From Candidatus Berkelbacteria bacterium (GTDB lineage Bacteria > Patescibacteriota > UBA1384 > CAILIB01), in NCBI GenBank assembly GCA_043751595.1, contig JAYUZR010000042.1, positions 270-64,269 of the forward strand: 64,000 bases of DNA, in the 5' to 3' direction. This document shows positions 9,470 to 63,983 of the stretch, piece by piece. A program made the translations under genes and the position numbers. Every line of letters begins with the position of its first letter. Positions within the stretch are counted from its first letter, which is position 1. Below the pieces are notes generated by a model that saw only the letters and a program-made list of their open reading frames with translations, had not been told where the DNA came from and did no database searches.

Positions 9470-10252
9470 CTAGGGACGCAGGGTGCCAGCAAATACCTGC
9501 CAAGCAAGTAGGCTTTTTGCAATAAGAGAAAGCCAAATATAGCTACGCTCACCAAAGACGTAATCAGCAAACTTACCCACTTTCTTATACTGAAGCACCA
9601 TCGTGATTGCGAAGCAGTTAAAGAAGAGGAAAATTGAACCGTAAATATAGTAGACAAAGGTAGGAATCTCGCCCGCACCGTACTGCGCTGATGCCCAAAA
9701 GTAGATCGCCACTACAAGCCACGGAATAATACCCAAGAAGCAGCCGATATTGTAAGCAAGCCAATTAGGCTTTTCAGTGCGATTATAGACCTCCATTACT
9801 AAGCCCATCAGATTCATTCCACTCACCAAGCTAAAGAGCATAATCAAGCTTGCAAGATCGTACAGTCCAACCAGCATGGCGATGGCAACCATCATTATGC
9901 TGGCCGAAATGGTATATTCCCACCAACGAGCCTTATTAATACCTAAGGCAAGATCTTTCTCGTAAGTTGGGCGATACCAGGTGGCAATAGAGAAGTGCGC
10001 AATGGCACTAACGAAAAGAAAGGCAACAATAATCCAGGCAAGTGGCACCTGGGCGATCTCCTTACTTGTTAAAAAGAGTTTTTGTAGGGTTGGGTTAAAA
10101 TCAAGAAAAGCAACAGTGAGTGGAAGCTTAAACCCAGTAGCGAGCGAAAGCATGATAATGCCCTGTAGGGCGTGGAGAGTACCCATTACCAGGTTAAGCT
10201 TGCGTAAACTTGCTGGCTGAATCGTCTGGTCTTTGGTGTGATTGTTTTTCAT
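9470..10252 (-). CDS. heliorhodopsin (7TM retinal protein, inverted topology)
   Basis: 260 aa from the ATG at 10252; the upstream ORF extension is out-of-context sequence. There are seven TM helices. The TM7 motif LSLIAKSLLAWQVFAGTL has a candidate Schiff-base Lys (K246). The TM3 motif WWEYTISAS has the counterion-position Glu (E112). His residues are at HeR-like positions in TM1 (GTLHALQG) and TM2 (AIAHFS). The C-terminal block FLFFNCFAITMVLQYKK..GERSYIWLSLIAKS closely resembles what I remember of heliorhodopsin 48C12. Confidence 0.6.
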   Translation of the reverse strand: MKNNHTKDQTIQPASLRKLNLVMGTLHALQGIIMLSLATGFKLPLTVAFLDFNPTLQKLFLTSKEIAQVPLAWIIVAFLFVSAIAHFSIATWYRPTYEKDLALGINKARWWEYTISASIMMVAIAMLVGLYDLASLIMLFSLVSGMNLMGLVMEVYNRTEKPNWLAYNIGCFLGIIPWLVVAIYFWASAQYGAGEIPTFVYYIYGSIFLFFNCFAITMVLQYKKVGKFADYVFGERSYIWLSLIAKSLLAWQVFAGTLRP

Positions 10253-10300
10253 CACTAGATAATACCCGATCCAGGTACATTGTGTACTTGTTAGAAATAC

Positions 10301-10328
10301 TTGACATATTGTAATAAATTGATAACAT
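10301..10328 (+). promoter_or_regulatory. sigma70-like promoter for a leaderless XRE regulator mRNA
   Basis: TTGACA (10301-10306), a 16-nt spacer, and TAACAT (10323-10328). The ATG at 10335 lies 7 nt after the -10, so the transcript would be leaderless. The same 82-bp region also holds the divergent heliorhodopsin start. Confidence 0.45.
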
Positions 10329-10334
10329 GCGGCC

Positions 10335-10559
10335 ATGTCACTCTTTACTACTAACCTAAAAGACCACCGTGTCCTGGCCGGTCTTTCGCAAGAAGAGCTC
10401 GCCAAAACGGTTGGTGTAGTACGGCAGACCATCGCCTATCTCGAGAAGGGTGATTACATGCCGTCACTAGGGCTTGCCGTAAAGCTAGCGCAACTATTCG
10501 ATGTTTCTATCGACACTTTATTCACCTTTCCGCAGCTCGTTGAGCCGCGCCGTAAATAA
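10335..10559 (+). CDS. XRE-family (Cro/C1-type) HTH transcriptional regulator
   Basis: 74 aa with an HTH (LSQEELAKTVGVVRQTIAYLEKG). It is a paralog of the 51070..51279 gene, and both are immediately followed by a small membrane protein gene. Confidence 0.8.
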   Translation: MSLFTTNLKDHRVLAGLSQEELAKTVGVVRQTIAYLEKGDYMPSLGLAVKLAQLFDVSIDTLFTFPQLVEPRRK

Positions 10560-31166: not shown

Positions 31167-32106
31167 TTCTCATTAAAAATGCGACTCGCTAAGCTGAAGG
31201 TGTAAGCCAATCAGTAACTAGGAGAGTCGCACGTGAATACTGTAGATCAAATTGAAATAGCCTGGAAGCTATACAGCCGAGGTGTTGGAGTGGGTGAAAT
31301 AGCCTTGAGTCTTTCAGTCCACCGAGCAACGGTATACCGCTGGATTGCTGGCATAAAACGAGCTGGATGCCTTCGCTCTTTCTTAAAGAGATATGCTTCA
31401 GCCAAGAAACGAGCCCGAGTAACCCGGATTCATCCTCATGCAGAGATCTTGCTTAAGGAGCAGCGCAGAAAGACCGGATACTGCGGCCAGAAGCTTGTCT
31501 TCTGGCTCAAGAAAAAGCATGGCATTTCTCTTTCGGTGGCCCATGCATATCGCTTACTTAAAAAGCACTTTGTCTTAAGCTCTAAATGGAGGAAGTGGGT
31601 GAAGAGACCAAAGCTCCCGCAAGTTACCCATCCAAACCAAGTGATTCAGATGGACGGTATCGACTTTGGAGGCATCTGGGTGCATACCTTCGTGGACTGC
31701 TATACCAGAAGAGCCCATGCGGTTGCTGTGTTAGACAAGACGGCAGCATCTGCGGCGTACGCCGCAGAACAGGCGGCTGCAGTGTTCGGGAGTATTCTGT
31801 GGCTGCAGACAGATAACGGGTCTGAGTATGGACCGAGCTTCGATATTCTAACGAAGGGCTGGTATCTAAACCGAAGAAGAATCCACCCAGGATGCTCAAA
31901 CGAGAACGGATTCGTTGAATCCTTCAACCGCACCGTTCGAAAAGAATGCTTAGGCTGGGGAAAGTACCGCCCAGAACAACAGACCAAGGTACAAGCAAGG
32001 CTAAACGCCTTCCTTCTTGAATACCACACCGAGAGACCTCATCTCTCACTTAACTTCCTTACCCCGAATGAGTTCATGCTTAAGTGAGTCGCATTTGACA
32101 TGAGAC
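31167..32106 (+). mobile_element. IS481-family insertion sequence (about 940 bp) with 21-bp imperfect terminal inverted repeats
   Basis: The left TIR ttctcattaaaaatgcgactc (31167..31187) matches the reverse complement of the right TIR gagtcgcatttgacatgagac (32086..32106) at 17 of 21 positions, and the terminal 11 bp are identical. It encloses a single DDE transposase ORF. I see no clear target-site duplication. Confidence 0.7.
31233..32087 (+). CDS. IS481-family DDE transposase (rve integrase core)
   Basis: N-terminal HTH, then an rve core with D (QMDGI), D (LQTDNGSEYG) and E (ESFNRTVRKE) residues at typical spacing. The stop codon overlaps the right TIR. Confidence 0.85.
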   Translation: MNTVDQIEIAWKLYSRGVGVGEIALSLSVHRATVYRWIAGIKRAGCLRSFLKRYASAKKRARVTRIHPHAEILLKEQRRKTGYCGQKLVFWLKKKHGISLSVAHAYRLLKKHFVLSSKWRKWVKRPKLPQVTHPNQVIQMDGIDFGGIWVHTFVDCYTRRAHAVAVLDKTAASAAYAAEQAAAVFGSILWLQTDNGSEYGPSFDILTKGWYLNRRRIHPGCSNENGFVESFNRTVRKECLGWGKYRPEQQTKVQARLNAFLLEYHTERPHLSLNFLTPNEFMLK

Positions 32107-36808: not shown

Positions 36809-37432
36809 TTGAGAAAGCTAAGCTTACTCTTCGCGCTCCTGCTCATGGCAAGCAGCGCCTTCGCGCAGCAGATTCGTACTGCTGCGGCGGCAACCTTCAA
36901 TGGTGCCGCTTTCGTAAACGGGATCGACGTCGCTCGCAACGACTCGACCATTATCTCCGGCCCTGGCTCAACCAACTACATCCTTCTGGATACGGTGCTT
37001 ACCAACGGGATCTCTGATCCTGGTACGCGCACCGTTCTCCTTCAGGGTTTAAAGGTTACCTGGGGCGGCGGCGACGTCTTTACTGCAACCAGCATGTTGA
37101 ATGCCGGTGGCAGTTTGTCCGCATCCGGGGTTACCGTATTTGGAGCTCCGCGAACGCTCCCGGTCTCCGGGTTTGATACCTACACGAGCCCTTCGTTTCC
37201 TGGCATGAGTGTGCTCTTCGGAGCCATCTCAGGCCAGTCGTTCGATGGCATCAGCTATGGAGCAATGCTCCAGATCAACGGACCGGCCGGTATTCCCTAC
37301 CGCGCCAACTACGGGTTGGTAGCGGATTCAGGCCAAACCTTTTCGGGCGGGGGCACTGCTCCTGAGCCTGGAACGCTCGCCCTTCTCACCATCGGCATTG
37401 TCGCCGGCATCTGCCGGAGGAACAGAAAATAA
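36809..37432 (+). CDS. PEP-CTERM sorting-domain secreted protein
   Basis: Signal peptide MRKLSLLFALLLMASSAFAQ. The C terminus APEPGTLALLTIGIVAGICRRNRK has the PEP motif, a TM helix and a basic cluster. The body is Gly/Ser/Thr-rich. Confidence 0.7.
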   Translation: MRKLSLLFALLLMASSAFAQQIRTAAAATFNGAAFVNGIDVARNDSTIISGPGSTNYILLDTVLTNGISDPGTRTVLLQGLKVTWGGGDVFTATSMLNAGGSLSASGVTVFGAPRTLPVSGFDTYTSPSFPGMSVLFGAISGQSFDGISYGAMLQINGPAGIPYRANYGLVADSGQTFSGGGTAPEPGTLALLTIGIVAGICRRNRK

Positions 37433-37579: not shown

Positions 37580-38191
37580 TTATTTAGCAGAAACCCCTAC
37601 CCTCGTAGCTGAACGATACAACTCTTCAATCAACCTCTCACGGTCCCAAAGCTCAACCTGATTCACCCGCGCAAGCTCGATTGCCGCAGGATAGAAGTAA
37701 TTATTAGTAATTACCATTGCCCGCACCGCACCATACTTTGCTTTAGCCGCTACCGCCTGGCGTACCGCATCCTGATCCAGCTTAGATGAATACCGCTTAA
37801 GCTGCGCAACTGTCCCAACTTCATCCTTTACCAAAACTAAATCTGCACCATAATCTTTTGTCGCTGGAGTAGTCTGCACCTTGTAGCCATTCATCTTAAA
37901 GTGCAGCGCCATTCGGCGCTCAAAATCTACCCCACTCATGAGGTCGATTTCGGTGATGCCAGCCAATAGTAGGCGCTGATCCGCCAGGTATTGGCGATAA
38001 AGAACTACCGATACATAGATTCCAACTAGAGCAAAAGAGCCCAAAATGAGGAGGAACCGATACTCCCAACCCAGTCCAAACAACACAACCATAAAAACAA
38101 CGATTCCCATAAAAAGCGGATCATCCAGCATGCTAACCTGACGGGTGCGCCGGGTTTTGCGTGGAGCATAGGTGCGCTTGCGGTACGCCAT
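37580..38191 (-). CDS. membrane-anchored Mrr-like (PD-(D/E)xK) restriction endonuclease domain protein
   Basis: The start is set at MAYRKRTYAPRK (ATG at 38191; the track ORF extends to 38326). One TM helix is followed by a Mrr_cat-like core GADLVLVKDE...VAQLKRYS. Confidence 0.5.
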   Translation of the reverse strand: MAYRKRTYAPRKTRRTRQVSMLDDPLFMGIVVFMVVLFGLGWEYRFLLILGSFALVGIYVSVVLYRQYLADQRLLLAGITEIDLMSGVDFERRMALHFKMNGYKVQTTPATKDYGADLVLVKDEVGTVAQLKRYSSKLDQDAVRQAVAAKAKYGAVRAMVITNNYFYPAAIELARVNQVELWDRERLIEELYRSATRVGVSAK

Positions 38192-38353
38192 ATATTTTCT
38201 AGCTTTCCATCCGGTACCCAATCCACATACCAAGTACCCCGCCGGCCAAGGTTCCAAAGATGGCCCACCCAGAGAATATCCCGGCCCCAAACAAGCTAGG
38301 GATATAGCCGCCAATACCCGACCCAACTACCATGCCAAGCCAGGTTACCGATT

Positions 38354-56514: not shown

Positions 56515-56930
56515 ATGCAGTCCATCTCCCTTATCGGGGTACTGCTGGCCGCGTTGATCGCCTTCCCTATTGGCTACGTCTGGTATATGCCTTCCACCTT
56601 CCTTACGCCTTGGCAGAAAATGACCGGCGTCTCCGATGCAGATATGAAAAAAGGGTTCGGAAAATCAATGGCTGTTATTGGCGTTTTCTCGCTGCTCACC
56701 GCCTACATCCTGGCCCACTTATGGTCTATAGCGCCTTCGCTACCGGCACCACTGGGGTTATGAACGGCCTTGAGACTGCCTTTTGGGCTTGGCTTGGCAT
56801 CTCACTTACTACCACTATTATTGGTGGCGCCATGGAAACCCGCGACGCCAAGGTGATGTACATTGCCGCCGGTAACCGCCTGATTACTCTTTTGGCGATG
56901 GGCGCGGTCCTTGGATTGTTTATGCGCTAA
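56515..56930 (+). pseudogene. DUF1761-family membrane protein gene interrupted by a +1/-1 frameshift near 56719..56722
   Basis: ORF 56515..56763 encodes the N-terminal two-thirds (MQSISLIGVLLAALIAFPIGYVWYMP...AYILAHL). The downstream third (VYSAFATGTTGVMNGLETAFWAWLG...LGLFMR) continues in another frame in ORF 56610..56930. A 1-nt change in ttatgg would restore one 130-aa DUF1761-like ORF. Confidence 0.55.
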
Positions 56931-56948: not shown

Positions 56949-56985
56949 AAAAAAACCGCCACCCGTGCAGGGTGGCGGTTTTTTA
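56949..56985. terminator. bidirectional rho-independent terminator
   Basis: aaaaaaaccgccaccc gtgca gggtggcggtttttta. Confidence 0.75.
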
Positions 56986-57924
56986 TCCCATTATTCCTTC
57001 AATCTCCAGAAGGAGTCCGGGACGACAAATCTCATCCCTTAGATAAATCGGATGATCTAGCCCAACCAAGACCTGCTTAATCTCCGCCAAGTCTTCACCC
57101 TTTCGCACATACACCCGGATTGTGTGAAGGTCGGCTATCTCAAAACTGCAGGCCCCTAGGTTTTTTAGTGAGCACAAAGCCTTAAGATTACGCAGCGTCT
57201 CCTCAGCCTGCTCCTTTGCCGTCTCATGCACCGTTTCTTCACCTAGTACGCTAGCAGTACCAGAAATGATCAATTGCCCACTACATAACGATCCCCGAGC
57301 AAAAACAGGCGGAAGCTTGCCGAACTTCCCAGAGTAAGTAGCAGCCGGAACCTGACGGTAGTTTTGGACATGTCGCACCGACTGTCGTGTAAGCAACACC
57401 TGCACAACCAGCGGGCCGGCGTATGCGCCAATTCCGGTTGCTGCTGGATATACTGGCGCGCCAGCTTCATCTTTAGGGCCACGTTCCTGCCAAGCCGCAA
57501 AGCGGCCAGCGTTAAATAAGCGGTAGCGCTCCTGCTCATCCGCCCCCTCAAGAATACGAGGAACATAGTTCCAGATGCGAAGAAGTTGATAATCTGGAAG
57601 CTGCTCCATCAACCGGAATACCTTTTGGTATGCCATCTCTGCAACACTAGAAAGATCAACTACATCATCTTGGCGAACCTCGAAGTAGGCAACCTCTTCG
57701 CAAAAGCGCACGGTTACCCCGTCGATTATCTGTGAAGTTACCACTTCATCTCCCAGCAGAAGTTCGAAGCATTCATCTTGGAGGGGCTCAATCCAAACAG
57801 GATCACAACCAGACTCAACTTCATCACCCTTTTTCACAAACTGGGTAAGTCGCAGTACCTGCTCTTCATGAGACGCCAGTAGCTCTGCCAGCTTAGACTT
57901 GTCACAAAAAATACTTTTAACCAT
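56983..57924 (-). CDS. chorismatase-like (FkbO/Hyg5/XanB2-type) protein: N-terminal extension plus C-terminal RidA/YjgF fold
   Basis: The C-terminal 120 aa aligns with RidA (GSLCSGQLIISGTASV resembles the xITSGQ region; IRVYVRKGEDLAEI; LLLEIEGI at the end). The roughly 190-aa N-terminal domain makes the total length 313 aa, as in chorismatases. Confidence 0.4.
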   Translation of the reverse strand: MVKSIFCDKSKLAELLASHEEQVLRLTQFVKKGDEVESGCDPVWIEPLQDECFELLLGDEVVTSQIIDGVTVRFCEEVAYFEVRQDDVVDLSSVAEMAYQKVFRLMEQLPDYQLLRIWNYVPRILEGADEQERYRLFNAGRFAAWQERGPKDEAGAPVYPAATGIGAYAGPLVVQVLLTRQSVRHVQNYRQVPAATYSGKFGKLPPVFARGSLCSGQLIISGTASVLGEETVHETAKEQAEETLRNLKALCSLKNLGACSFEIADLHTIRVYVRKGEDLAEIKQVLVGLDHPIYLRDEICRPGLLLEIEGIMG

Positions 57925-57926
57925 TA

Positions 57927-58739
57927 TTAGCGTTCAAAATAGAGGCTGACATTATTACTCTTTCCGGCCCACACCTTCATATCTGCAAGATCCAGCTCTT
58001 TCGCAACCAACAAAGCAGACTCTTGATACTGAGCGAGGGTTGGGGCATTTAGGTGGGCTCGTATATACGCTTCTTTTAGATGCTTTTCACCGTCGCGCTG
58101 CTGAGCTGCAGCCACAAAGGCTAGCTGGCCTTCGTTACTCAAGTCATCCACCCGACGAAAGCCATCAATCCTCGTCATACCACCTCGTTGTTTAGTGGCA
58201 AGAACCATCCGCTTTAACGCATCGGCAAGCTCATCTACTCGGTGAATCATATTTCGCGAAGTGGCGAGATCAAACGCAATACCCGAATCTTTGGATACAG
58301 CGAGGGCATTATGCTCAATAATGTGCACCCTTTCGGCTACTTCAAAAAGGATCCTATTCTCCTCAGCGCATTCGATCATGTCTGGAGAAATATCAACTCC
58401 AACCATTCGCGCAGTAGGCAACTCCTTAGCAATGAGCGAAGTTAAGATGGCTGGACCACAACCAAAGTCGATTATTTGCGGGTGCTCAATATGTTTACTA
58501 CGCACAAGCTGGCCGATATCTTTAACCAAAGGCGCATACCTCTCTAGATTTCGTAGAGCTTCTTGATTAAACTCAGATGCCTCCAGGCCAAGAATCGCCT
58601 CATTATCCTGCTTATCGGCAATAGTCTCGCCTCCGGCAACTCTACCCAGCCCCGCCTGCTCCACAACCTGCTCCAGACCCTCCCTTGCGCGCGCAAAGGT
58701 GCGCATATCATCTTGGGTGTATATCTTGAGTTTGTCCAT
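57927..58739 (-). CDS. class I SAM-dependent methyltransferase
   Basis: Motif I IIDFGCGPAILT, acidic post-I residue VGVDIS, and motif II-like region. It is 2 nt downstream of the chorismatase-like gene. Confidence 0.75.
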   Translation of the reverse strand: MDKLKIYTQDDMRTFARAREGLEQVVEQAGLGRVAGGETIADKQDNEAILGLEASEFNQEALRNLERYAPLVKDIGQLVRSKHIEHPQIIDFGCGPAILTSLIAKELPTARMVGVDISPDMIECAEENRILFEVAERVHIIEHNALAVSKDSGIAFDLATSRNMIHRVDELADALKRMVLATKQRGGMTRIDGFRRVDDLSNEGQLAFVAAAQQRDGEKHLKEAYIRAHLNAPTLAQYQESALLVAKELDLADMKVWAGKSNNVSLYFER

Positions 58740-58869
58740 CCTAGTATTCGATAGTTACTGGTACACTTTTTCGACTGTGTCTAACTAATAAGACGTGTAT
58801 ACGAGAAAGTGTGTGATTGGCTGCGTTTTACCCTGATATTAATCAGATATCAATAGCTAAGGAATGCTC

Positions 58870-58919
58870 TTGAGTCTTTTATTGGTGTGATGTATACTAT
58901 GTCTACAAATACAGACATA
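58870..58919 (+). promoter_or_regulatory. promoter and palindromic operator of the first TrmB-like regulator
   Basis: TTGAGT (58870-58875), a 17-nt spacer, TATACT (58893-58898). The palindrome TATGTCT-N8-AGACATA (58898..58919) spans the -10/TSS region and ends in the first base of the start codon. Confidence 0.4.
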
Positions 58920-59689
58920 TGGATACCAGTATACTTTCTTCCCTCAGCGAAGCCGGTCTCTCCGAAAAAGAGGCTCGGGTTTACGTTGCCATGCTCGAGC
59001 TTGGCGAATCAAGCATCATCCCCATTGCACAGCGGGCCGGTATTAAACGCACCACCGTCTATAATTATCTCGATGAGTTTCACCGGCTTGGGCTAATCAG
59101 CGTTACTATTCGCAACCAACGTCAGTTTTATCGCGCCGCCTCCCCCACTCGTCTCCAAGACCTATTACGCGAACGCCTCTCTAAGGTTGAGAGTATCGTT
59201 CCCACTCTGTTCTCACTGTATCAACAAGAAGAAGGCAAGCCTTCGGTTCAGATGTTTGAGGGAGTTGAGGGAATTAAAACAGTTTTCCAACTTTCGCTCG
59301 ATTGTGCCGGTAAAAAGATTGATGCCATGCCAGTACACGCTTCTGGCCATAGCCACGTAGGTGATGCATTTATTACCTCTTACCTTGATCAAACCAAAAA
59401 GAAAAAGATTGCCTACAGAAGTCTTCGCTTAGCTGGAGATGCCGCGGCCTATACCCAGAGTGGATATGAAAAAGTCCTACCCACCCCGGACGATAACCGC
59501 GAGATTCGAGTTGCGCCTGAATGGTTTACACCCGAGAGCCATATCCATATGTACGACGATACGGTAGCAATCTTCTCCCAAACCAAGGAGAAACCGTACG
59601 CAATGCTGATTACCAGCAAGAGCTATCATCAGACGATGCAGCTATTCTTTGAAGCGATTTGGAACCAGTCTTCGGAAGTTACAGCCTAG
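58919..59689 (+). CDS. TrmB-family transcriptional regulator (N-terminal wHTH plus C-terminal ligand-binding-type domain)
   Basis: N-terminal TrmB HTH LSEKEARVYVAMLELGESSIIPIAQRAGIKRTTVYNYLDEFHRLGLISV. 256 aa. One of three paralogs. Confidence 0.7.
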   Translation: MDTSILSSLSEAGLSEKEARVYVAMLELGESSIIPIAQRAGIKRTTVYNYLDEFHRLGLISVTIRNQRQFYRAASPTRLQDLLRERLSKVESIVPTLFSLYQQEEGKPSVQMFEGVEGIKTVFQLSLDCAGKKIDAMPVHASGHSHVGDAFITSYLDQTKKKKIAYRSLRLAGDAAAYTQSGYEKVLPTPDDNREIRVAPEWFTPESHIHMYDDTVAIFSQTKEKPYAMLITSKSYHQTMQLFFEAIWNQSSEVTA

Positions 59690-59692
59690 TTT

Positions 59693-60451
59693 TTATTGCT
59701 CAGAACTTATCTTCCACAATTCCTTAAACCAACTCCTCATACTCTCAGCGTAATCGCGAGAGGTCGTTACCACGCCAAAACTCTCTTTAGCTGTAGTTAC
59801 CACCGCTACGCTATCGCCATAAATAAGAATAACCGAGGGGCTCGTAAAGCCTTCGGGGGCATAGCGAATAGTTCGAAGGAGTTCTTTCGTGCCAACATAT
59901 TCATCGGTCTCTTGCTCACCACTGCGAATCCTAATTGCCCTGGCTTTTATCTGCTTGGCAGCACGCCTACGGATCCAATCTCGCAGAAAGCGATCCCCCA
60001 CTGCGAGAGAGATATTAGTGGTGTTACCCACGTAGCACATCTCATTAATCGGCTGATCAATAATATCGTTGTAAAGATCGCGCAACTCCTCTCCTTTAAA
60101 AACCTGGACTCGTGGCTGGAAGGGACTTGAGCGAAAAAGCTGATTCAGCTCGGGTAGTACTTCTTCTAGTTGCTGAGCCTGCATCTCTAGCTGGGCCCCT
60201 TTTTTTCGGATAAGTGAGATAAGGCTCTTGGGTGAAACCGCGATATAACGCTTATGGGTGGCGTGCTGCACAATTTCAATCAATCCCTTGGTCTGCAGCT
60301 TCTCAAGTACGTATACTAAGGTAGTACGCACAATCCCCGTCTTTTTTACCAGCGGCACAATGGTGCATTCACTTAACTCGAGCGCTGCCAGATAGGTAGC
60401 AATCTCTTTGCCATCCAGACCTAGTTTCTCCAGGGTTTCTTGTAAGAGCAT
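59693..60451 (-). CDS. TrmB-family transcriptional regulator (paralog 2)
   Basis: LDGKEIATYLAALELSECTIVPLVKKTGIVRTTLVYVLEKLQTKGLIEIV, at 252 aa with the same architecture. Confidence 0.7.
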   Translation of the reverse strand: MLLQETLEKLGLDGKEIATYLAALELSECTIVPLVKKTGIVRTTLVYVLEKLQTKGLIEIVQHATHKRYIAVSPKSLISLIRKKGAQLEMQAQQLEEVLPELNQLFRSSPFQPRVQVFKGEELRDLYNDIIDQPINEMCYVGNTTNISLAVGDRFLRDWIRRRAAKQIKARAIRIRSGEQETDEYVGTKELLRTIRYAPEGFTSPSVILIYGDSVAVVTTAKESFGVVTTSRDYAESMRSWFKELWKISSEQ

Positions 60452-60586
60452 ATGACGAACTATTTCGACGTTACATTACAAATATACCAGCAAATACTTG
60501 ATGCTTAAACCTGTTAAAGCTTAAGTAAGCGTTGACGTAAATAGTCATCAAAGCTATAACACCCGCGATTTATTACAGCAACTATC

Positions 60587-61651
60587 ATGCCTCAAGAATA
60601 CCACAACTCATCCGAAGAGCCTCCTACACGTCACGTGCAGGAGCGTCACTCCGTACAACGATATGACAAAATGGGTGAAGTTAGCGAAGAAAGTACTCCA
60701 GCTAATACCTGGGGGCTGATCGAGTGGAATGGCGAAGTTCGCAGCGTCTACCAGGATACGGAGCTTATGCGCATGTTTGTTAATCCGATTCTTACAACCA
60801 AGCCTCACGGAGTAACTCGCTTTGCCGACTTTGGCGGTGCTAACGGCAAAGTGCTTCGAGAAGTATTCACCATGACTAGAGAGGCCCAGCTGCAAGAGTT
60901 GTATGAAGAACAGCTTGCCACAGGCCTGAGTGAAGAAGGGGCACGCAAAGTAGCCGATGACCGATTTTCCAGGGAAGGAATTCTCCCTATCGGTCTCACT
61001 ATCGACGCCGAACTAAAGGTGAAGGACGGCAAGACTACTAGGGCTTGGAATGAGTTCAGGGAAGCTAATCCGGACGACACAAGTCGGGTTTTTGCCAGCG
61101 CCACCGACTACATGCAAGAAGTACCCAATATTGCCCCCGACTCTCTCGACATTGCCCTTTCCCGCTACAGCCTCCAGTACGTTTCTGCAGAAAATCATAC
61201 CGTTTTCTTAAAACGACAGGCCGACCTTGTAAAGCCAGGCGGACAAGTACTCGCCCAGTGGCCAGGTGCCGCTGATGAGCGCAGTGAGGTTATGCTCAAT
61301 ACATTTTGGTCAAACTTTGCCCATATTACCCAGGGGGTAGATCCGGCAGAGTTTTTAACCAGGCAGCACTACCCAACCCTAGAGCAGGTGCAGAAAGCGG
61401 TAGAAGATGCCGGACTTACTATTACATCGCTCGAGTCAGTGCCCAACCTAAAGATCTTCATGTATGAAGAGGCGTTGAGTAATGGGACCAGATTTACTCC
61501 ACTTTCGGAGAGCCAAAAGGCAGACTTGCGAGAATTATATGTCCACCTACACAATGAGTTCCCCGACTTGGTTCACTTTGATGAAGAAACCGATAACTAC
61601 TGGACGAGTATGACGCTTGGCATGCTGGTAGCCGAGAAGCCTACTGAATGA
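60587..61651 (+). CDS. divergent SAM-dependent methyltransferase-like protein
   Basis: Motif I-like TRFADFGGANGKVL, and post-II/III LKRQADLVKPGGQVLAQW, with long insertions, at 354 aa. Confidence 0.45.
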   Translation: MPQEYHNSSEEPPTRHVQERHSVQRYDKMGEVSEESTPANTWGLIEWNGEVRSVYQDTELMRMFVNPILTTKPHGVTRFADFGGANGKVLREVFTMTREAQLQELYEEQLATGLSEEGARKVADDRFSREGILPIGLTIDAELKVKDGKTTRAWNEFREANPDDTSRVFASATDYMQEVPNIAPDSLDIALSRYSLQYVSAENHTVFLKRQADLVKPGGQVLAQWPGAADERSEVMLNTFWSNFAHITQGVDPAEFLTRQHYPTLEQVQKAVEDAGLTITSLESVPNLKIFMYEEALSNGTRFTPLSESQKADLRELYVHLHNEFPDLVHFDEETDNYWTSMTLGMLVAEKPTE

Positions 61652-61663
61652 ATAGCTTATTCG

Positions 61664-62434
61664 CTACGCCACCCAAACCACTTGCTTTACGCTAGCCCAT
61701 AGCCGGGATTGTTCTTTCTCAGGATCACCACCCTCCTTAGTTAGCGCAAGAGCGTAACTTAGCATGCGAGTAACATGCCCGTCGCTTTTCCCAATATAGG
61801 TATAAGGTGAAGCCTGAAGAGCAAGACCGTATCCCTTTTCTTGGCAGAAGGATTGCAACTCTAATACATTCCCGATTAATGCCATCCAGGTTGGCCGGTA
61901 ATCAAGATCTGGCAAAGAATCTAAAAAACTTAGTATCTCATCTGTAATTAACGAGTCCCGGATTGCATCCTCTCTAGCTTTGTAAAAAGGATAGATAAGA
62001 TCGGCCATATCCAGAGTGAGCAGTAGAGCGAAGGAATCAGTACATTGAAGGTTTGTATCAATAGTCTGAGTAATCTCTTGATACTTAGCATATCTAAACT
62101 GGCCCTCAAACCATCTTCCCCCTCCACAGTAATCAAGGTTAATCAGATTATACGGAAAAGCCTGCGTAAAGACCGCTGATTGTAGTAGCTGGTTATAGGG
62201 GCTGCGAAAGATTACTCGACATACCTGTGAAGTAGTGGTCGGATCAAGGGTTACACCATCAACAATCAGATTCACACCATGATTACTCTGTTTTACCTTG
62301 AGCCAATACTCGTCCCTATCTCCCAAGAATTCCAATACCTTCACCACACGCAAAGATGAGAGAAGCTGATTGAGCGCAGGCGCCCACAATGCTTCTCTCA
62401 CCACAGCTTTTTCTTGGGATAAAAAGCGGATCAC
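61664..62434 (-). CDS. hypothetical protein co-transcribed with a methyltransferase (possible degenerate MTase fold)
   Basis: 256 aa. NLINLDYCGGG weakly resembles a glycine-rich AdoMet loop. Its start overlaps the upstream MTase stop by 4 nt. Confidence 0.4.
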   Translation of the reverse strand: MIRFLSQEKAVVREALWAPALNQLLSSLRVVKVLEFLGDRDEYWLKVKQSNHGVNLIVDGVTLDPTTTSQVCRVIFRSPYNQLLQSAVFTQAFPYNLINLDYCGGGRWFEGQFRYAKYQEITQTIDTNLQCTDSFALLLTLDMADLIYPFYKAREDAIRDSLITDEILSFLDSLPDLDYRPTWMALIGNVLELQSFCQEKGYGLALQASPYTYIGKSDGHVTRMLSYALALTKEGGDPEKEQSRLWASVKQVVWVA

Positions 62435-63093
62435 TCTATCTTTTTTACATGGAAGAGTAGAAACGGTGCAACTCCTTTACTGGTACCCTCGTCTCCATAG
62501 AGACGACTTACTTTTTCTAGGGTAAGACCTGCCAGCGCAAAGACCTCTACAAAGTCTCCTTCTGACCAATACCAATCGTCTACTACCAAGCCTTGGCCGA
62601 GGGTAGTTTTTACGCGCGCTCCCGACTCTGGCGGATCGATAAACGAGGTGTGGAAAGAACTAAACTGAACCTCATTAATCTCCAAATAGTTTGAATGAAA
62701 AATGATCAGCGAACCCCCAGGTTGCAGTACCTTGGCAATCTCTTGTATCCAATGAGCCACTTTCCCAAGTGAGTCCATGGTACAAAAGACGTAGTTTGCC
62801 ACCACTGCGGCAAACGTAGCCTCACCCAAGTCGGCAAGAGACTCACCAATTAGGAGAGCCCCTAGGCCGGCCTTGGCAATCATATCCGGAGATTGATCCA
62901 CCCCTACCACTTCATATCCAAGCCTCTGCAAAGTTCGCATAAAATGACCTTCGCCACAGCCAAAATCGAGCACTCGAGCTGAGGGCAAAGGAAGTTCCCT
63001 TACCACCGCCGGATAGCCAATTGTATGCTCGGTAGTTGCTGCGTCACTTACAAATGCCGCAAACTCGTCCGCTACTTTCCCTCGATACTCCAT
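62431..63093 (-). CDS. class I SAM-dependent methyltransferase
   Basis: Motif I VLDFGCGEGHF, VGVDQS, and motif IV-like LQPGGSLIIF. A strong SD aggagg precedes the ATG. Confidence 0.75.
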   Translation of the reverse strand: MEYRGKVADEFAAFVSDAATTEHTIGYPAVVRELPLPSARVLDFGCGEGHFMRTLQRLGYEVVGVDQSPDMIAKAGLGALLIGESLADLGEATFAAVVANYVFCTMDSLGKVAHWIQEIAKVLQPGGSLIIFHSNYLEINEVQFSSFHTSFIDPPESGARVKTTLGQGLVVDDWYWSEGDFVEVFALAGLTLEKVSRLYGDEGTSKGVAPFLLFHVKKIE

Positions 63094-63224
63094 CGTTTTC
63101 CTCCTGTTCGTTGATTGAACGAAGTAGAGATACCGGCTTATCGTGACTTAGTCAAAGGAATGTGATGACAAAGTAGACTCACCTGTGCTATAGATGTGAC
63201 TACGTAACTTCTTACCCTTTAGCA

Positions 63225-63983
63225 ATGGCCGAATCAGATCACAAAGGCGTGATTTCTTCACTTATCTCACTTGGATTATCTCAGCATGAATCCGCTGTGT
63301 ATCTTAGTGTCCTCGCCCTTGGTGAGGTAAGTGCCGGGAAAGTAATTGAAGATGTTCGGCTCCATCGTGAACAAGTGTATCGCGCCCTCAAGCGCCTAGC
63401 AGATGATGGATTGCTAACTACGTATGAACATCAACACAAAGCTTTCTATTCGGCTGTTGAGCCAAGAATTCTGGTTGAGCGAGTACAGGCTAAAGTTGCA
63501 CTCGCGGAATCGGTCTTGCCCTACCTAGAAACACTGCACCAGCGAAAGATGCAGATTATTAAGGTGGGCGAAGGGATTGATTCTCTCGAGGCTCATCTTG
63601 AAGACATGCTCACTAACCTCCCCTGGGGCGGCGAGTACTTAGTAATTAGCGGATATGGCGATCAATTCTACGAACTTGCTAAGGACTATCTGGCAAGGTA
63701 TCACCGAAAGTTTCTTTCTAAGGGATTACGCGGCAGACTGCTACTGGCAAACCAGCCAGAGGGTGAGGGCATTTCTAGCGCTATTCCTTCCGCCTCTTTT
63801 GCTGCCACCACTATTTATGGAGATAAAATGGCAATCGAGATTCTAGATCCGGAAAATCCGGCCATTATCACTATTGAGAATAGTAAGGTTGCCTCCTCCT
63901 ATCGAGATACCTTTGAATCGCTCTGGCGCCACGAAAAAGATATGAGCCGAAAGTGGAAGATTGAAGGCCTTATTCGGGACTAA
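63225..63983 (+). CDS. TrmB-family transcriptional regulator (paralog 3)
   Basis: LSQHESAVYLSVLALGEVSAGKVIEDVRLHREQVYRALKRLADDGLLTT, at 252 aa. Confidence 0.7.
   Translation: MAESDHKGVISSLISLGLSQHESAVYLSVLALGEVSAGKVIEDVRLHREQVYRALKRLADDGLLTTYEHQHKAFYSAVEPRILVERVQAKVALAESVLPYLETLHQRKMQIIKVGEGIDSLEAHLEDMLTNLPWGGEYLVISGYGDQFYELAKDYLARYHRKFLSKGLRGRLLLANQPEGEGISSAIPSASFAATTIYGDKMAIEILDPENPAIITIENSKVASSYRDTFESLWRHEKDMSRKWKIEGLIRD

Follow-up and report, generated by a model that had tools for sequence, protein, structure and literature searches.

Three genes for TrmB-family regulators, each divergent from a methyltransferase-type gene, lie within 7 kb of one another beside a gene for a chorismatase-like enzyme, and the question raised by this locus is whether these genes form one small-molecule system or several. 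The locus occupies positions 56,983 to 63,983 of a 64,000-nucleotide stretch of contig JAYUZR010000042.1 from a Candidatus Berkelbacteria bacterium (assembly GCA_043751595.1); this whole stretch is referred to as the window. A preliminary description had read the locus as a triplicated regulator–methyltransferase module that modifies an aromatic product such as a hydroxybenzoate. We propose instead, at about an even chance, that it contains one conserved autoregulated hydroxybenzoate C-methylation unit (56983-59689) together with two separate TrmB cassettes. The 64-kb window was scanned with Pfam and NCBIfam profiles at their curated cut-offs and compared with PDB, PADLOC, PHROG, and Rfam. An open reading frame (ORF) check of the window showed all eight ORFs named in the preliminary description to be present, with the coordinates and strands given there. 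The features of the proposed unit are as follows.

56983..57924, minus strand: chorismatase-like enzyme of the FkbO/Hyg5/XanB2 family, 313 amino acids (aa); second gene of the MT270 operon.
57927..58739, minus strand: MT270, a probable S-adenosylmethionine (SAM)-dependent aromatic C-methyltransferase, NovO/CouO-like; first gene of the operon, with a 2-bp gap to the chorismatase gene.
58779..58794, no strand assigned: predicted operator O2, GTCTAACTAATAAGAC, 39 bp upstream of the MT270 ATG and right after a minus-strand TATACA -10-like box.
58870..58898, plus strand: promoter-like TTGAGT-17-TATACT for trmB_A, from a consensus scan and suggestive only.
58901..58916, no strand assigned: predicted operator O1, GTCTACAAATACAGAC, with one mismatch, ending 2 bp before the trmB_A ATG.
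58919..59689, plus strand: TrmB_A, a regulator of predicted TrmBL2 architecture with a winged helix-turn-helix (HTH), a coiled coil, and a PLD-like domain; PF01978, 49.5 bits.

The 313-aa protein matched PF21168 (FkbO_Hyg5-like_N) over residues 56-177 with 82.6 bits (E 3e-23; cut-off 27), and HMMER aligned its residues 68-312 with two chorismatases of solved structure, Hyg5 (5AG3, E 1.8e-28) and FkbO (4BPS, E 3e-25). The putative RidA-like C-terminal half gave only 15.4 bits with PF01042 (cut-off 27.3), yet it aligns with the solved Hyg5 and FkbO chains. In Hyg5, the enolpyruvyl methylene is protonated by Glu334 as the catalytic acid, and Gly164, Gly231, and Cys318 (Nat-Hyg5 numbering, that is, Hyg5 minus 9) mark the CH-II subfamily, which forms 3-hydroxybenzoate (PMC7170507). 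In the HMMER alignment, E307 of the window protein (LLLEIEG) was found at the position of Hyg5 Glu334 (LLVEIEG), and the CH-II signature positions were occupied by G164 (AATGIG), G222 (SGTAS), and C300 (ICR). FkbO has Ala at the last two of these positions (SATAG and IAR), and, as judged from the aligned residues, the Gly/Cys signature rules out the FkbO type. G222, C300, and E307 are kept in the homologues of three loci (L026, L020, and L010) from the candidate phyla radiation (CPR), and members P0006, P0036, and P0103 of the homologue alignment A1 are named at source chorismate lyase / 3-hydroxybenzoate synthase or FkbO/Hyg5-family enzyme. The profile match, the alignment with Hyg5 and FkbO, and the intact catalytic Glu indicate that the protein is a chorismatase relative and not a plain RidA protein, as had been suspected. 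It is predicted to be a hydroxybenzoate synthase of the Hyg5/XanB2 type, and 3-hydroxybenzoate is predicted as its product from the Gly/Gly/Cys signature.

MT270 is a class I methyltransferase that scored above the cut-off with the Methyltransf_11/12/23/25/31 group of Pfam. Its best matches in the PDB were NovO (5MGZ, E 1.4e-17) and CouO (5M58, E 2e-15), with residues 47-259 of MT270 aligned to residues 4-212; the next matches were at ~1e-6 or weaker, with a ubiquinone methyltransferase at 1e-4. In CouO, the key residues are His120, which deprotonates the phenol, and Arg121, by which the phenolate is stabilised; Phe147 stacks against the His (PMC5289526). The residues S161-R-N-M-I-H166-R167 of MT270 aligned with SRNAFHR of NovO, and the stacking Phe was aligned too. 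The motif recurs as SRNMLHR in the MT270 orthologue of L026 and as GRNWAHR in a 395-aa protein of L020. MT270 is best read as a phenol-directed aromatic C-methyltransferase, and the methylation is probably on carbon. The O- or N-methylation suggested in the preliminary description is disfavoured by this closeness to NovO and CouO and by the His-Arg dyad. A phenol-directed C-methyltransferase fits a hydroxybenzoate supplied by the co-transcribed chorismatase.

The association of these two enzymes with TrmB_A was examined in related genomes. TrmB_A has 19 orthologues at 54-77% identity, and the synteny sample consisted of seven loci (the window, the P0138 locus, L026, L020, L021, L022, and L025). 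In four of the seven (the window, P0138, L026, and L020), the TrmB_A orthologue is divergent from an operon ending in an FkbO/Hyg5-like gene, so that the comparison with related genomes suggested earlier does reveal a recurring core unit; the operon is absent from L021, L022, and L025. The L026 operon encodes a 249-aa methyltransferase (MT249; 31% identity to MT270 over the full length) and a chorismatase-like protein of 287 aa (40% identity). The L020 operon encodes the 395-aa protein, which carries GPGPG and GRNWAHR motifs and is colinear with MT249 and MT270 (pairwise E 1e-3), followed by a chorismatase-like protein of 410 aa. In the P0138 locus, genes for a 282-aa methyltransferase, a 392-aa chorismatase-like protein, and a 213-aa protein are followed on the same strand by a MacB/FtsX + ABC_tran exporter. 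Three of the nearest chorismatase homologues, P0002 from Chondromyces crocatus (53% identity) and the metagenomic proteins P0008 and P0014, had no TrmB or methyltransferase neighbour in any of their three contexts, indicating that the synteny follows the TrmB_A lineage and not the chorismatase lineage. A scan of the genome collection with the chorismatase alignment returned four loci only, Chondromyces not among them, and a metagenome scan with the TrmB_A alignment returned two, one of which was already known. No counterparts of TrmB_B, TrmB_C, MT354, MT220, or the 256-aa protein of the other two cassettes were found in the related loci examined, nor was a close orthologue of TrmB_B retrieved. 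Thus the linked regulator–methyltransferase–chorismatase system that had been postulated is supported by synteny and by the operator for the first module, but not for the second and third, which lack counterparts.

Comparison of the upstream regions of six TrmB_A orthologues revealed a conserved palindrome, GTCTA-N6-TAGAC. It was found by a custom scan, the repeat finder having reported no inverted repeats at its seed length. The palindrome is perfect in L020, L021, L022, L025, and L026 and has one mismatch in the window; its end lies 2 bp from the ATG in the window and 3-11 bp from it in the five other loci, and a -10-like hexamer stands directly before it in every one of the six. The 64-kb window contains only two matches to GTCTA-N6-TAGAC with at most one mismatch, and both are in the 179-bp intergenic region between TrmB_A and MT270. 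The chance that two random sites would both fall there is ~(179/64000)^2, or roughly 8e-6. In the related loci (11-21 kb), the palindrome occurs essentially only at the position upstream of trmB_A. The geometry of O2, a TATACA box followed by the site on the minus strand, mirrors that of O1. A second site of the type GTCAA-N5-TAGAC is present 68-80 bp upstream of the ATG in L021, L022, L025, and L026, and L020 carries a less well preserved copy at much the same position. As a separate observation, L020 (5559-5595) and L021 (9918-9955) have perfect inverted repeats around the second, upstream operator-like site; with arms of 12 bp and spacers of 13-14 bp, these greatly exceed the core operator in length.

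An RNA element or hairpin was considered for the palindrome and rejected: Rfam gave no matches in the window, and the arms keep their sequence and show no compensatory changes, the window copy having an A·C mismatch. This pattern of conservation points to a DNA site bound by a protein. Known operators of the TrmB family are inverted repeats and repress when they are downstream of the promoter (PMC4158304). The sites downstream of the -10-like boxes have this repressing geometry, and TrmB_A most likely represses both transcripts.

An AlphaFold (AF2) model of TrmB_A, made from 43 sequences, had a predicted local distance difference test (pLDDT) score of 92.3. Foldseek matched the model over its whole length to TrmBL2 (5BPD, E 4.9e-14) and then to TrmB (3QPH, E 1.8e-9), and the C-terminal domain alone matched PLD/Nuc-fold proteins. 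The three TrmB proteins of the window are 252-256 aa long, whereas canonical TrmB and TrmBL1 have ~340 aa and TrmBL2 has 260 aa. In the NCBIfam equivalogs for TrmB/TrmBL1, all three scored no higher than 36 bits against cut-offs of 600-650. TrmBL2 is without the effector-binding subdomain of canonical TrmB (PMC4158304). According to the model, TrmB_A is built like the short TrmBL2 and has no sugar/effector subdomain, and the ligand-sensing role that had been ascribed to the regulator is an assumption.

Whether the other two regulator–methyltransferase pairs are copies of the first was examined with the remaining features of the cluster.

59693..60451, minus strand: TrmB_B, paralogue divergent from MT354; PF01978, 37.2 bits.
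60587..61651, plus strand: MT354, probable methyltransferase of class I carrying an insertion; 26.4 bits with Methyltransf_23 (cut-off 27).
61664..62434, minus strand: 256-aa protein of a very rare family; its start overlaps the MT220 end by 4 bp; no Pfam or NCBIfam match.
62431..63093, minus strand: MT220, a generic SAM methyltransferase of class I; leads a two-gene operon that is transcribed divergently from TrmB_C.
63107..63123, no strand assigned: inverted repeat TTCGTT-N5-AACGAA adjoining the MT220 start; candidate TrmB_C site or hairpin of the 5' untranslated region.
63225..63983, plus strand: TrmB_C, the most divergent paralogue; PF01978, 45.8 bits.

All three regulators exceeded the gathering cut-off of the TrmB HTH family PF01978 (25.6 bits), and each is divergent from a methyltransferase-type gene across an intergenic region of 179, 135, or 131 bp, although the match of MT354 is borderline. 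In these respects the preliminary description was accurate, and its family calls also held in the profile searches on each ORF, with 61664-62434 being without a family match and none of the methyltransferases being an rRNA or tRNA housekeeping enzyme. No further TrmB-like ORF was found in the other 57 kb of the window, indicating that the clustering of TrmB genes is not a background property of the stretch. A different picture was obtained for the threefold repeat. In pairwise comparisons, TrmB_A and TrmB_B were 30% identical over the full length, and TrmB_C was 27-29% identical to either of them. MT220 and MT270 shared 24% identity over a 99-residue SAM-binding core (E 1e-4), and MT354 had no significant similarity to either. 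Tandem duplication of a regulator–methyltransferase module is thus not supported, since identity among the TrmB proteins is as low as 27-30% and the methyltransferases resemble one another in the SAM-binding Rossmann core at most. The comparison indicates three old TrmB paralogues, each beside a different methyltransferase, and not copies of one unit. A single operator common to the three intergenic regions was also rejected, because the search found no shared half-site among them; the three paralogues also differ in their recognition helices, which agrees with this result. The repeat TTCGTT-N5-AACGAA was not much above shuffle expectation.

The threefold arrangement had also been called unusual, but clusters of TrmB paralogues with divergent cargo are common in the related loci. 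The cargo found there beside other TrmB paralogues includes PP2C with a methyltransferase, an unknown 359-aa protein, and an N6_N4 methylase-like gene with a 195-aa protein. L021 (5161-13077) and the P0138 locus each contain three TrmB paralogues within ~8 kb, each with a different divergent cargo, and the L021 cluster is near pyrG, as is that of the window. The TrmB-controlled cassettes look like a recurrent variable region in this lineage, and the clustering of TrmB paralogues with variable cargo is a lineage trait.

The second and third cassettes gave fewer clues. MT354 had no match in PDB, PHROG, or PADLOC. MT220, like MT270, scored above the cut-off with the Methyltransf_11/12/23/25/31 group, with 53.3 bits for Methyltransf_11 and 52.9 bits for Methyltransf_23, and in the PDB it had only generic relatives; its best PHROG match is annotated as a tRNA methyltransferase, and no DNA-methylase profile matched significantly (N6_N4_Mtase, E 0.024; PADLOC MTase_II, E 0.002 or worse). 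In the related loci, TrmB_C was best matched by L021 12370-13077 (26% identity, E 6e-27), which is divergent from a gene resembling N6_N4 DNA methylases and from that of an unknown 195-aa protein. The 256-aa protein had only 11 relatives among 1.84 billion representative proteins. The conserved motifs of the family include FPYxxINLDYYGGG, and one relative (P0172) is fused at its N terminus to a DUF4406 / nucleoside 2-deoxyribosyltransferase-like domain. An indexed search with the 256-aa protein and a comparison of the family profile with PDB sequences gave no matches, and a single-sequence AlphaFold model had a pLDDT of 41 and was unusable. The motifs VLEFxG, GVTLD, and NLDYYGGG led us to consider a divergent Rossmann methyltransferase, and this was abandoned, as hhalign against MT220 and MT354 gave no support. 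The one homologous locus examined, L027, had no methyltransferase neighbour. A defence or restriction-modification system was likewise rejected, because PADLOC returned only generic HTH and SAM-fold matches.

The flank beyond the window was read on a 129-kb metagenome contig (ENA ERZ27313706 k141_1312272), and the same region is present in several other assemblies. Past the window end, a 51-aa ORF and two ABC_membrane+ABC_tran exporter genes (together L005 10746-14524) follow within 1 kb and converge on TrmB_C; the exporter genes encode half-transporters of 588 and 592 aa, and the contig ends ~170 bp beyond them. No TrmB_A operator was found upstream of these ATP-binding cassette (ABC) exporter genes. 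The preliminary description had noted that no transporter was visible, which is true of the window only, since the window ends there. The named TrmB_A relatives and one chorismatase relative come from metagenome-assembled genomes of Patescibacteria/CPR.

From the gene families, the catalytic residues, the synteny, and the conserved locus-specific palindrome, we infer the repression, the substrate, the product, and the independence of the other two cassettes as follows. Dimeric TrmB_A would bind both copies of GTCTA-N6-TAGAC within the 179 bp between trmB_A and MT270, O1 at the promoter of trmB_A and O2 at that of the divergent operon, each just downstream of a -10-like box, and would thereby repress its own gene and the MT270-chorismatase operon. 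The Hyg5/XanB2-type chorismatase would convert chorismate to a hydroxybenzoate, predicted to be 3-hydroxybenzoate. The His166/Arg167 dyad of MT270 would then deprotonate the phenol, and the ring carbon ortho to the hydroxyl would be methylated. The result would be a hydroxybenzoate methylated on carbon, which the nearby ABC system might export. TrmB_B/MT354 and TrmB_C/MT220 with the 256-aa protein would be separate cassettes with their own operators and substrates; they would adjoin the unit because, in this lineage, a variable region gathers TrmB paralogues and their divergent cargo.

Several observations weigh against this proposal. On the regulatory side, TrmBL2, the closest structural match of TrmB_A, is without an effector domain and acts as a chromatin protein, so no ligand is inferable. 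The second site in the orthologues has N5 and not N6 spacing, and three of the seven loci (L021, L022, and L025) keep both operator-like sites although they have no operon; the second site may therefore serve autoregulation and not control of the operon. In the consensus scan, the number of promoter-like matches in the region was not above chance. On the enzymatic side, the chorismatase-like protein gave 141.9 bits with TIGR04444, far below the cut-off of 325, so that by its score it is a divergent relative of this family and is not called a member. All 24 homologues of alignment A1 share the signature Gly and Cys without variation, and the signature may not separate producers of 3-hydroxybenzoate from XanB2-like producers of mixed 3- and 4-hydroxybenzoate. 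MT270 is ~25-30% identical to NovO and CouO, whose substrates are large aminocoumarins, and its regiochemistry and substrate are guesses from this homology. The window chorismatase shares 53% identity with the protein of Chondromyces crocatus and no more than 34-40% with the homologues in the syntenic CPR modules, while the TrmB_A orthologues adjoining the latter are 56-67% identical. This suggests either replacement of the chorismatase gene by transfer or very fast divergence of the enzyme. Moreover, the 64-kb window has no shikimate-pathway gene. To our knowledge, CPR bacteria are generally without genes of aromatic biosynthesis and the shikimate pathway. Taken together, these two points leave the source of chorismate unexplained, and the substrate could differ; the enzyme may act on host-derived chorismate or on another substrate.

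Other readings of the locus were weighed against the same evidence. All three cassettes could serve one pathway, in essence the model of the preliminary description, in which MT270, MT354, and MT220 in succession methylate a hydroxybenzoate at C, O, and/or the carboxyl group, assisted by the 256-aa protein, with a TrmB sensor for each step and export by the ABC system. The tightness of the 7-kb cluster in a window with no TrmB gene elsewhere, the small-molecule-type methyltransferase in each of the three cargo sets, the exporter genes immediately after the cluster, and the second TrmB/methyltransferase pair beside the core unit of the P0138 locus would all agree with such a pathway. We nevertheless regard it as unlikely, as related loci that keep the core unit have no orthologues of the second and third cassettes and carry different cargo beside the neighbouring TrmB genes, no operator is shared, and the ABC genes converge on TrmB_C without a TrmB_A operator. 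The variability of the accessory-like cargo beside the TrmB paralogues and the exporters adjoining the cluster both here and in the P0138 locus would also suit an inducible detoxification or resistance system. In that case the TrmB proteins would sense foreign phenolics or antibiotics, the methyltransferases would inactivate them, the ABC pumps would expel them, and the chorismatase-like enzyme would act on an imported chorismate-like or enol-pyruvyl compound. The lack of an evident chorismate supply would then be accounted for. The conserved methyltransferase-chorismatase pair with its intact catalytic residues looks, however, like a two-step pathway, and no known resistance methyltransferase family was matched in NCBIfam or PADLOC, which makes such a system distinctly unlikely in our view.

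Two further readings concern parts of the locus. The third cassette, and perhaps the second, could modify nucleic acids or nucleotides under a controller-like TrmB, comparable to the C-protein of restriction-modification systems and unrelated to aromatics. The DNA-methylase-like gene divergent from the best match of TrmB_C, the DUF4406 fusion in a relative of the 256-aa protein, and the tRNA methyltransferase among the PHROG matches of MT220 point in this direction. Against it stand the lack of a significant DNA-methylase profile match for MT220, the absence of any defence system found by PADLOC, and the L027 homologue of the 256-aa protein, which has no methyltransferase neighbour. A nucleotide-related role of the third cassette is thus a minority possibility, and we give this reading a slim chance. 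The core unit itself could provide the ring precursor of a quinone or of a lipid of the aryl-polyene type, in the way that XanB2 serves ubiquinone and xanthomonadin, and MT270 would then take the role of UbiE/Coq5. Many chorismatase homologues are named chorismate lyase / 3-hydroxybenzoate synthase by JGI, the Chondromyces homologue adjoins two polyprenyl synthase genes, and MT270 has weak matches to the UbiE and UbiG profiles. MT270 matches NovO/CouO (1e-17) far better than the ubiquinone methyltransferase (1e-4), however. Neither the window nor the related loci contain a prenyltransferase, polyketide synthase (PKS), or other quinone gene, and the window is also without non-ribosomal peptide synthetase (NRPS) genes. 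We consider a quinone or lipid precursor very improbable.

If the proposed unit of TrmB_A, MT270, and the chorismatase is correct, it would give access to methyl-hydroxybenzoates by a minimal pathway and might yield small biocatalysts of the Friedel-Crafts type. Bacterial TrmB regulators are essentially uncharacterised, and TrmB_A offers a clean predicted operator together with a defined target operon. All the parts belong to known families, while the combination and the lineage are new; the literature searched describes neither a pairing of a chorismatase with a NovO-type C-methyltransferase nor a CPR chorismatase. If the host is a CPR bacterium without the shikimate pathway, the operon raises the question of metabolite theft or of signalling between episymbiont and host, and if the organism makes its own chorismate, it would be an ordinary small tailoring operon in an unusual lineage. 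We suggest tentatively, and with no great expectation, a wider picture in which a lineage of the CPR, a group credited with hardly any specialised or biosynthetic metabolism, keeps a repressor-controlled two-enzyme pathway that possibly uses host-derived chorismate and exports a methyl-hydroxybenzoate as an episymbiotic signal or inhibitor. Among bacterial regulators of the TrmBL2 type, TrmB_A would then be the first to have a defined operator, its PLD-like domain possibly binding an aromatic acid.

The rest of the window is lean, with genes for a heliorhodopsin, iPGM, ABC-F, and two-component systems. The heliorhodopsin gene is at 9470-10432 on the minus strand (PF18761, E 1.4e-88), and no retinal-synthesis genes were seen in the window. 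A 1199-aa protein (18340-21939, minus strand) has short Metallophos and FBPase_2-like matches near residues 350-530 and is otherwise largely unannotated. In the middle of the window, an insertion sequence (IS)-type integrase (rve/rve_3; 31233-32087, plus strand) and a protein with an Mrr_cat restriction endonuclease domain (37580-38326, minus strand) indicate some mobile or defence content away from the cluster. A 207-aa protein (36809-37432, plus strand) ends in a PEP-CTERM sorting motif (E 1.4e-5), which is unexpected in Patescibacteria and calls for slight caution about the taxonomic assignment. Just downstream of the chorismatase gene, a DUF1761 gene is split into two overlapping frames on the plus strand (56515-56763 and 56610-56930). 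On contig L001 the second of these pieces is called with 56 aa, on L002 and L004 with 69 aa, which suggests that the gene is frameshifted or polymorphic.

Each component of the proposed unit can be compared with a known system. Hyg5 (CH-II, a 3-hydroxybenzoate synthase, EC 4.1.3.45) and XanB2 (CH-III) have in common with the window enzyme the FkbO_Hyg5-like_N domain and, probably, the RidA-like C-terminal half. The catalytic Glu and the Gly/Gly/Cys residues of Hyg5 are conserved at an overall identity of ~30-35%. The setting differs, in that the window enzyme is in a probable CPR genome without PKS/NRPS or pigment genes and is paired with a C-methyltransferase and a TrmB regulator. The aminocoumarin C8 C-methyltransferases NovO and CouO share with MT270 the SRNxxHR motif, the His/Arg dyad, the stacking Phe, and the C-terminal lid helices. 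MT270, in contrast, has ~45 extra N-terminal residues and no antibiotic gene cluster around it, and its likely substrate is a small hydroxybenzoate and not an aminocoumarin.

TrmBL2 and TrmB of Thermococcales resemble TrmB_A in the PF01978 winged HTH, the coiled-coil dimerisation helix, and the PLD-like domain, and the predicted inverted-repeat operator of TrmB_A is downstream of the promoter, as are the repressing sites of TrmB and TrmBL1. TrmB_A is, however, bacterial, ~14% identical to these proteins, and without the sugar-binding subdomain. Its predicted palindrome is specific and restricted to the locus, whereas TrmBL2 is a genome-wide chromatin protein, and GTCTA-N6-TAGAC differs from the TACT-N3-AGTA and TATCAC-N5-GTGATA sites of the Thermococcales regulators. 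In its organisation, the predicted TrmB_A system also resembles the MarR-type repressors of phenolic-acid operons transcribed divergently from the repressor gene, such as HpaR and PcaV. HpaR and other ligand-bound MarR structures were among the weak Foldseek matches of the TrmB_A model. Both kinds of system would consist of an autoregulated winged-helix dimer, two palindromes between divergent genes, and an operon for an aromatic acid, with the difference that TrmB_A belongs to the TrmB family and has an additional PLD-like domain.

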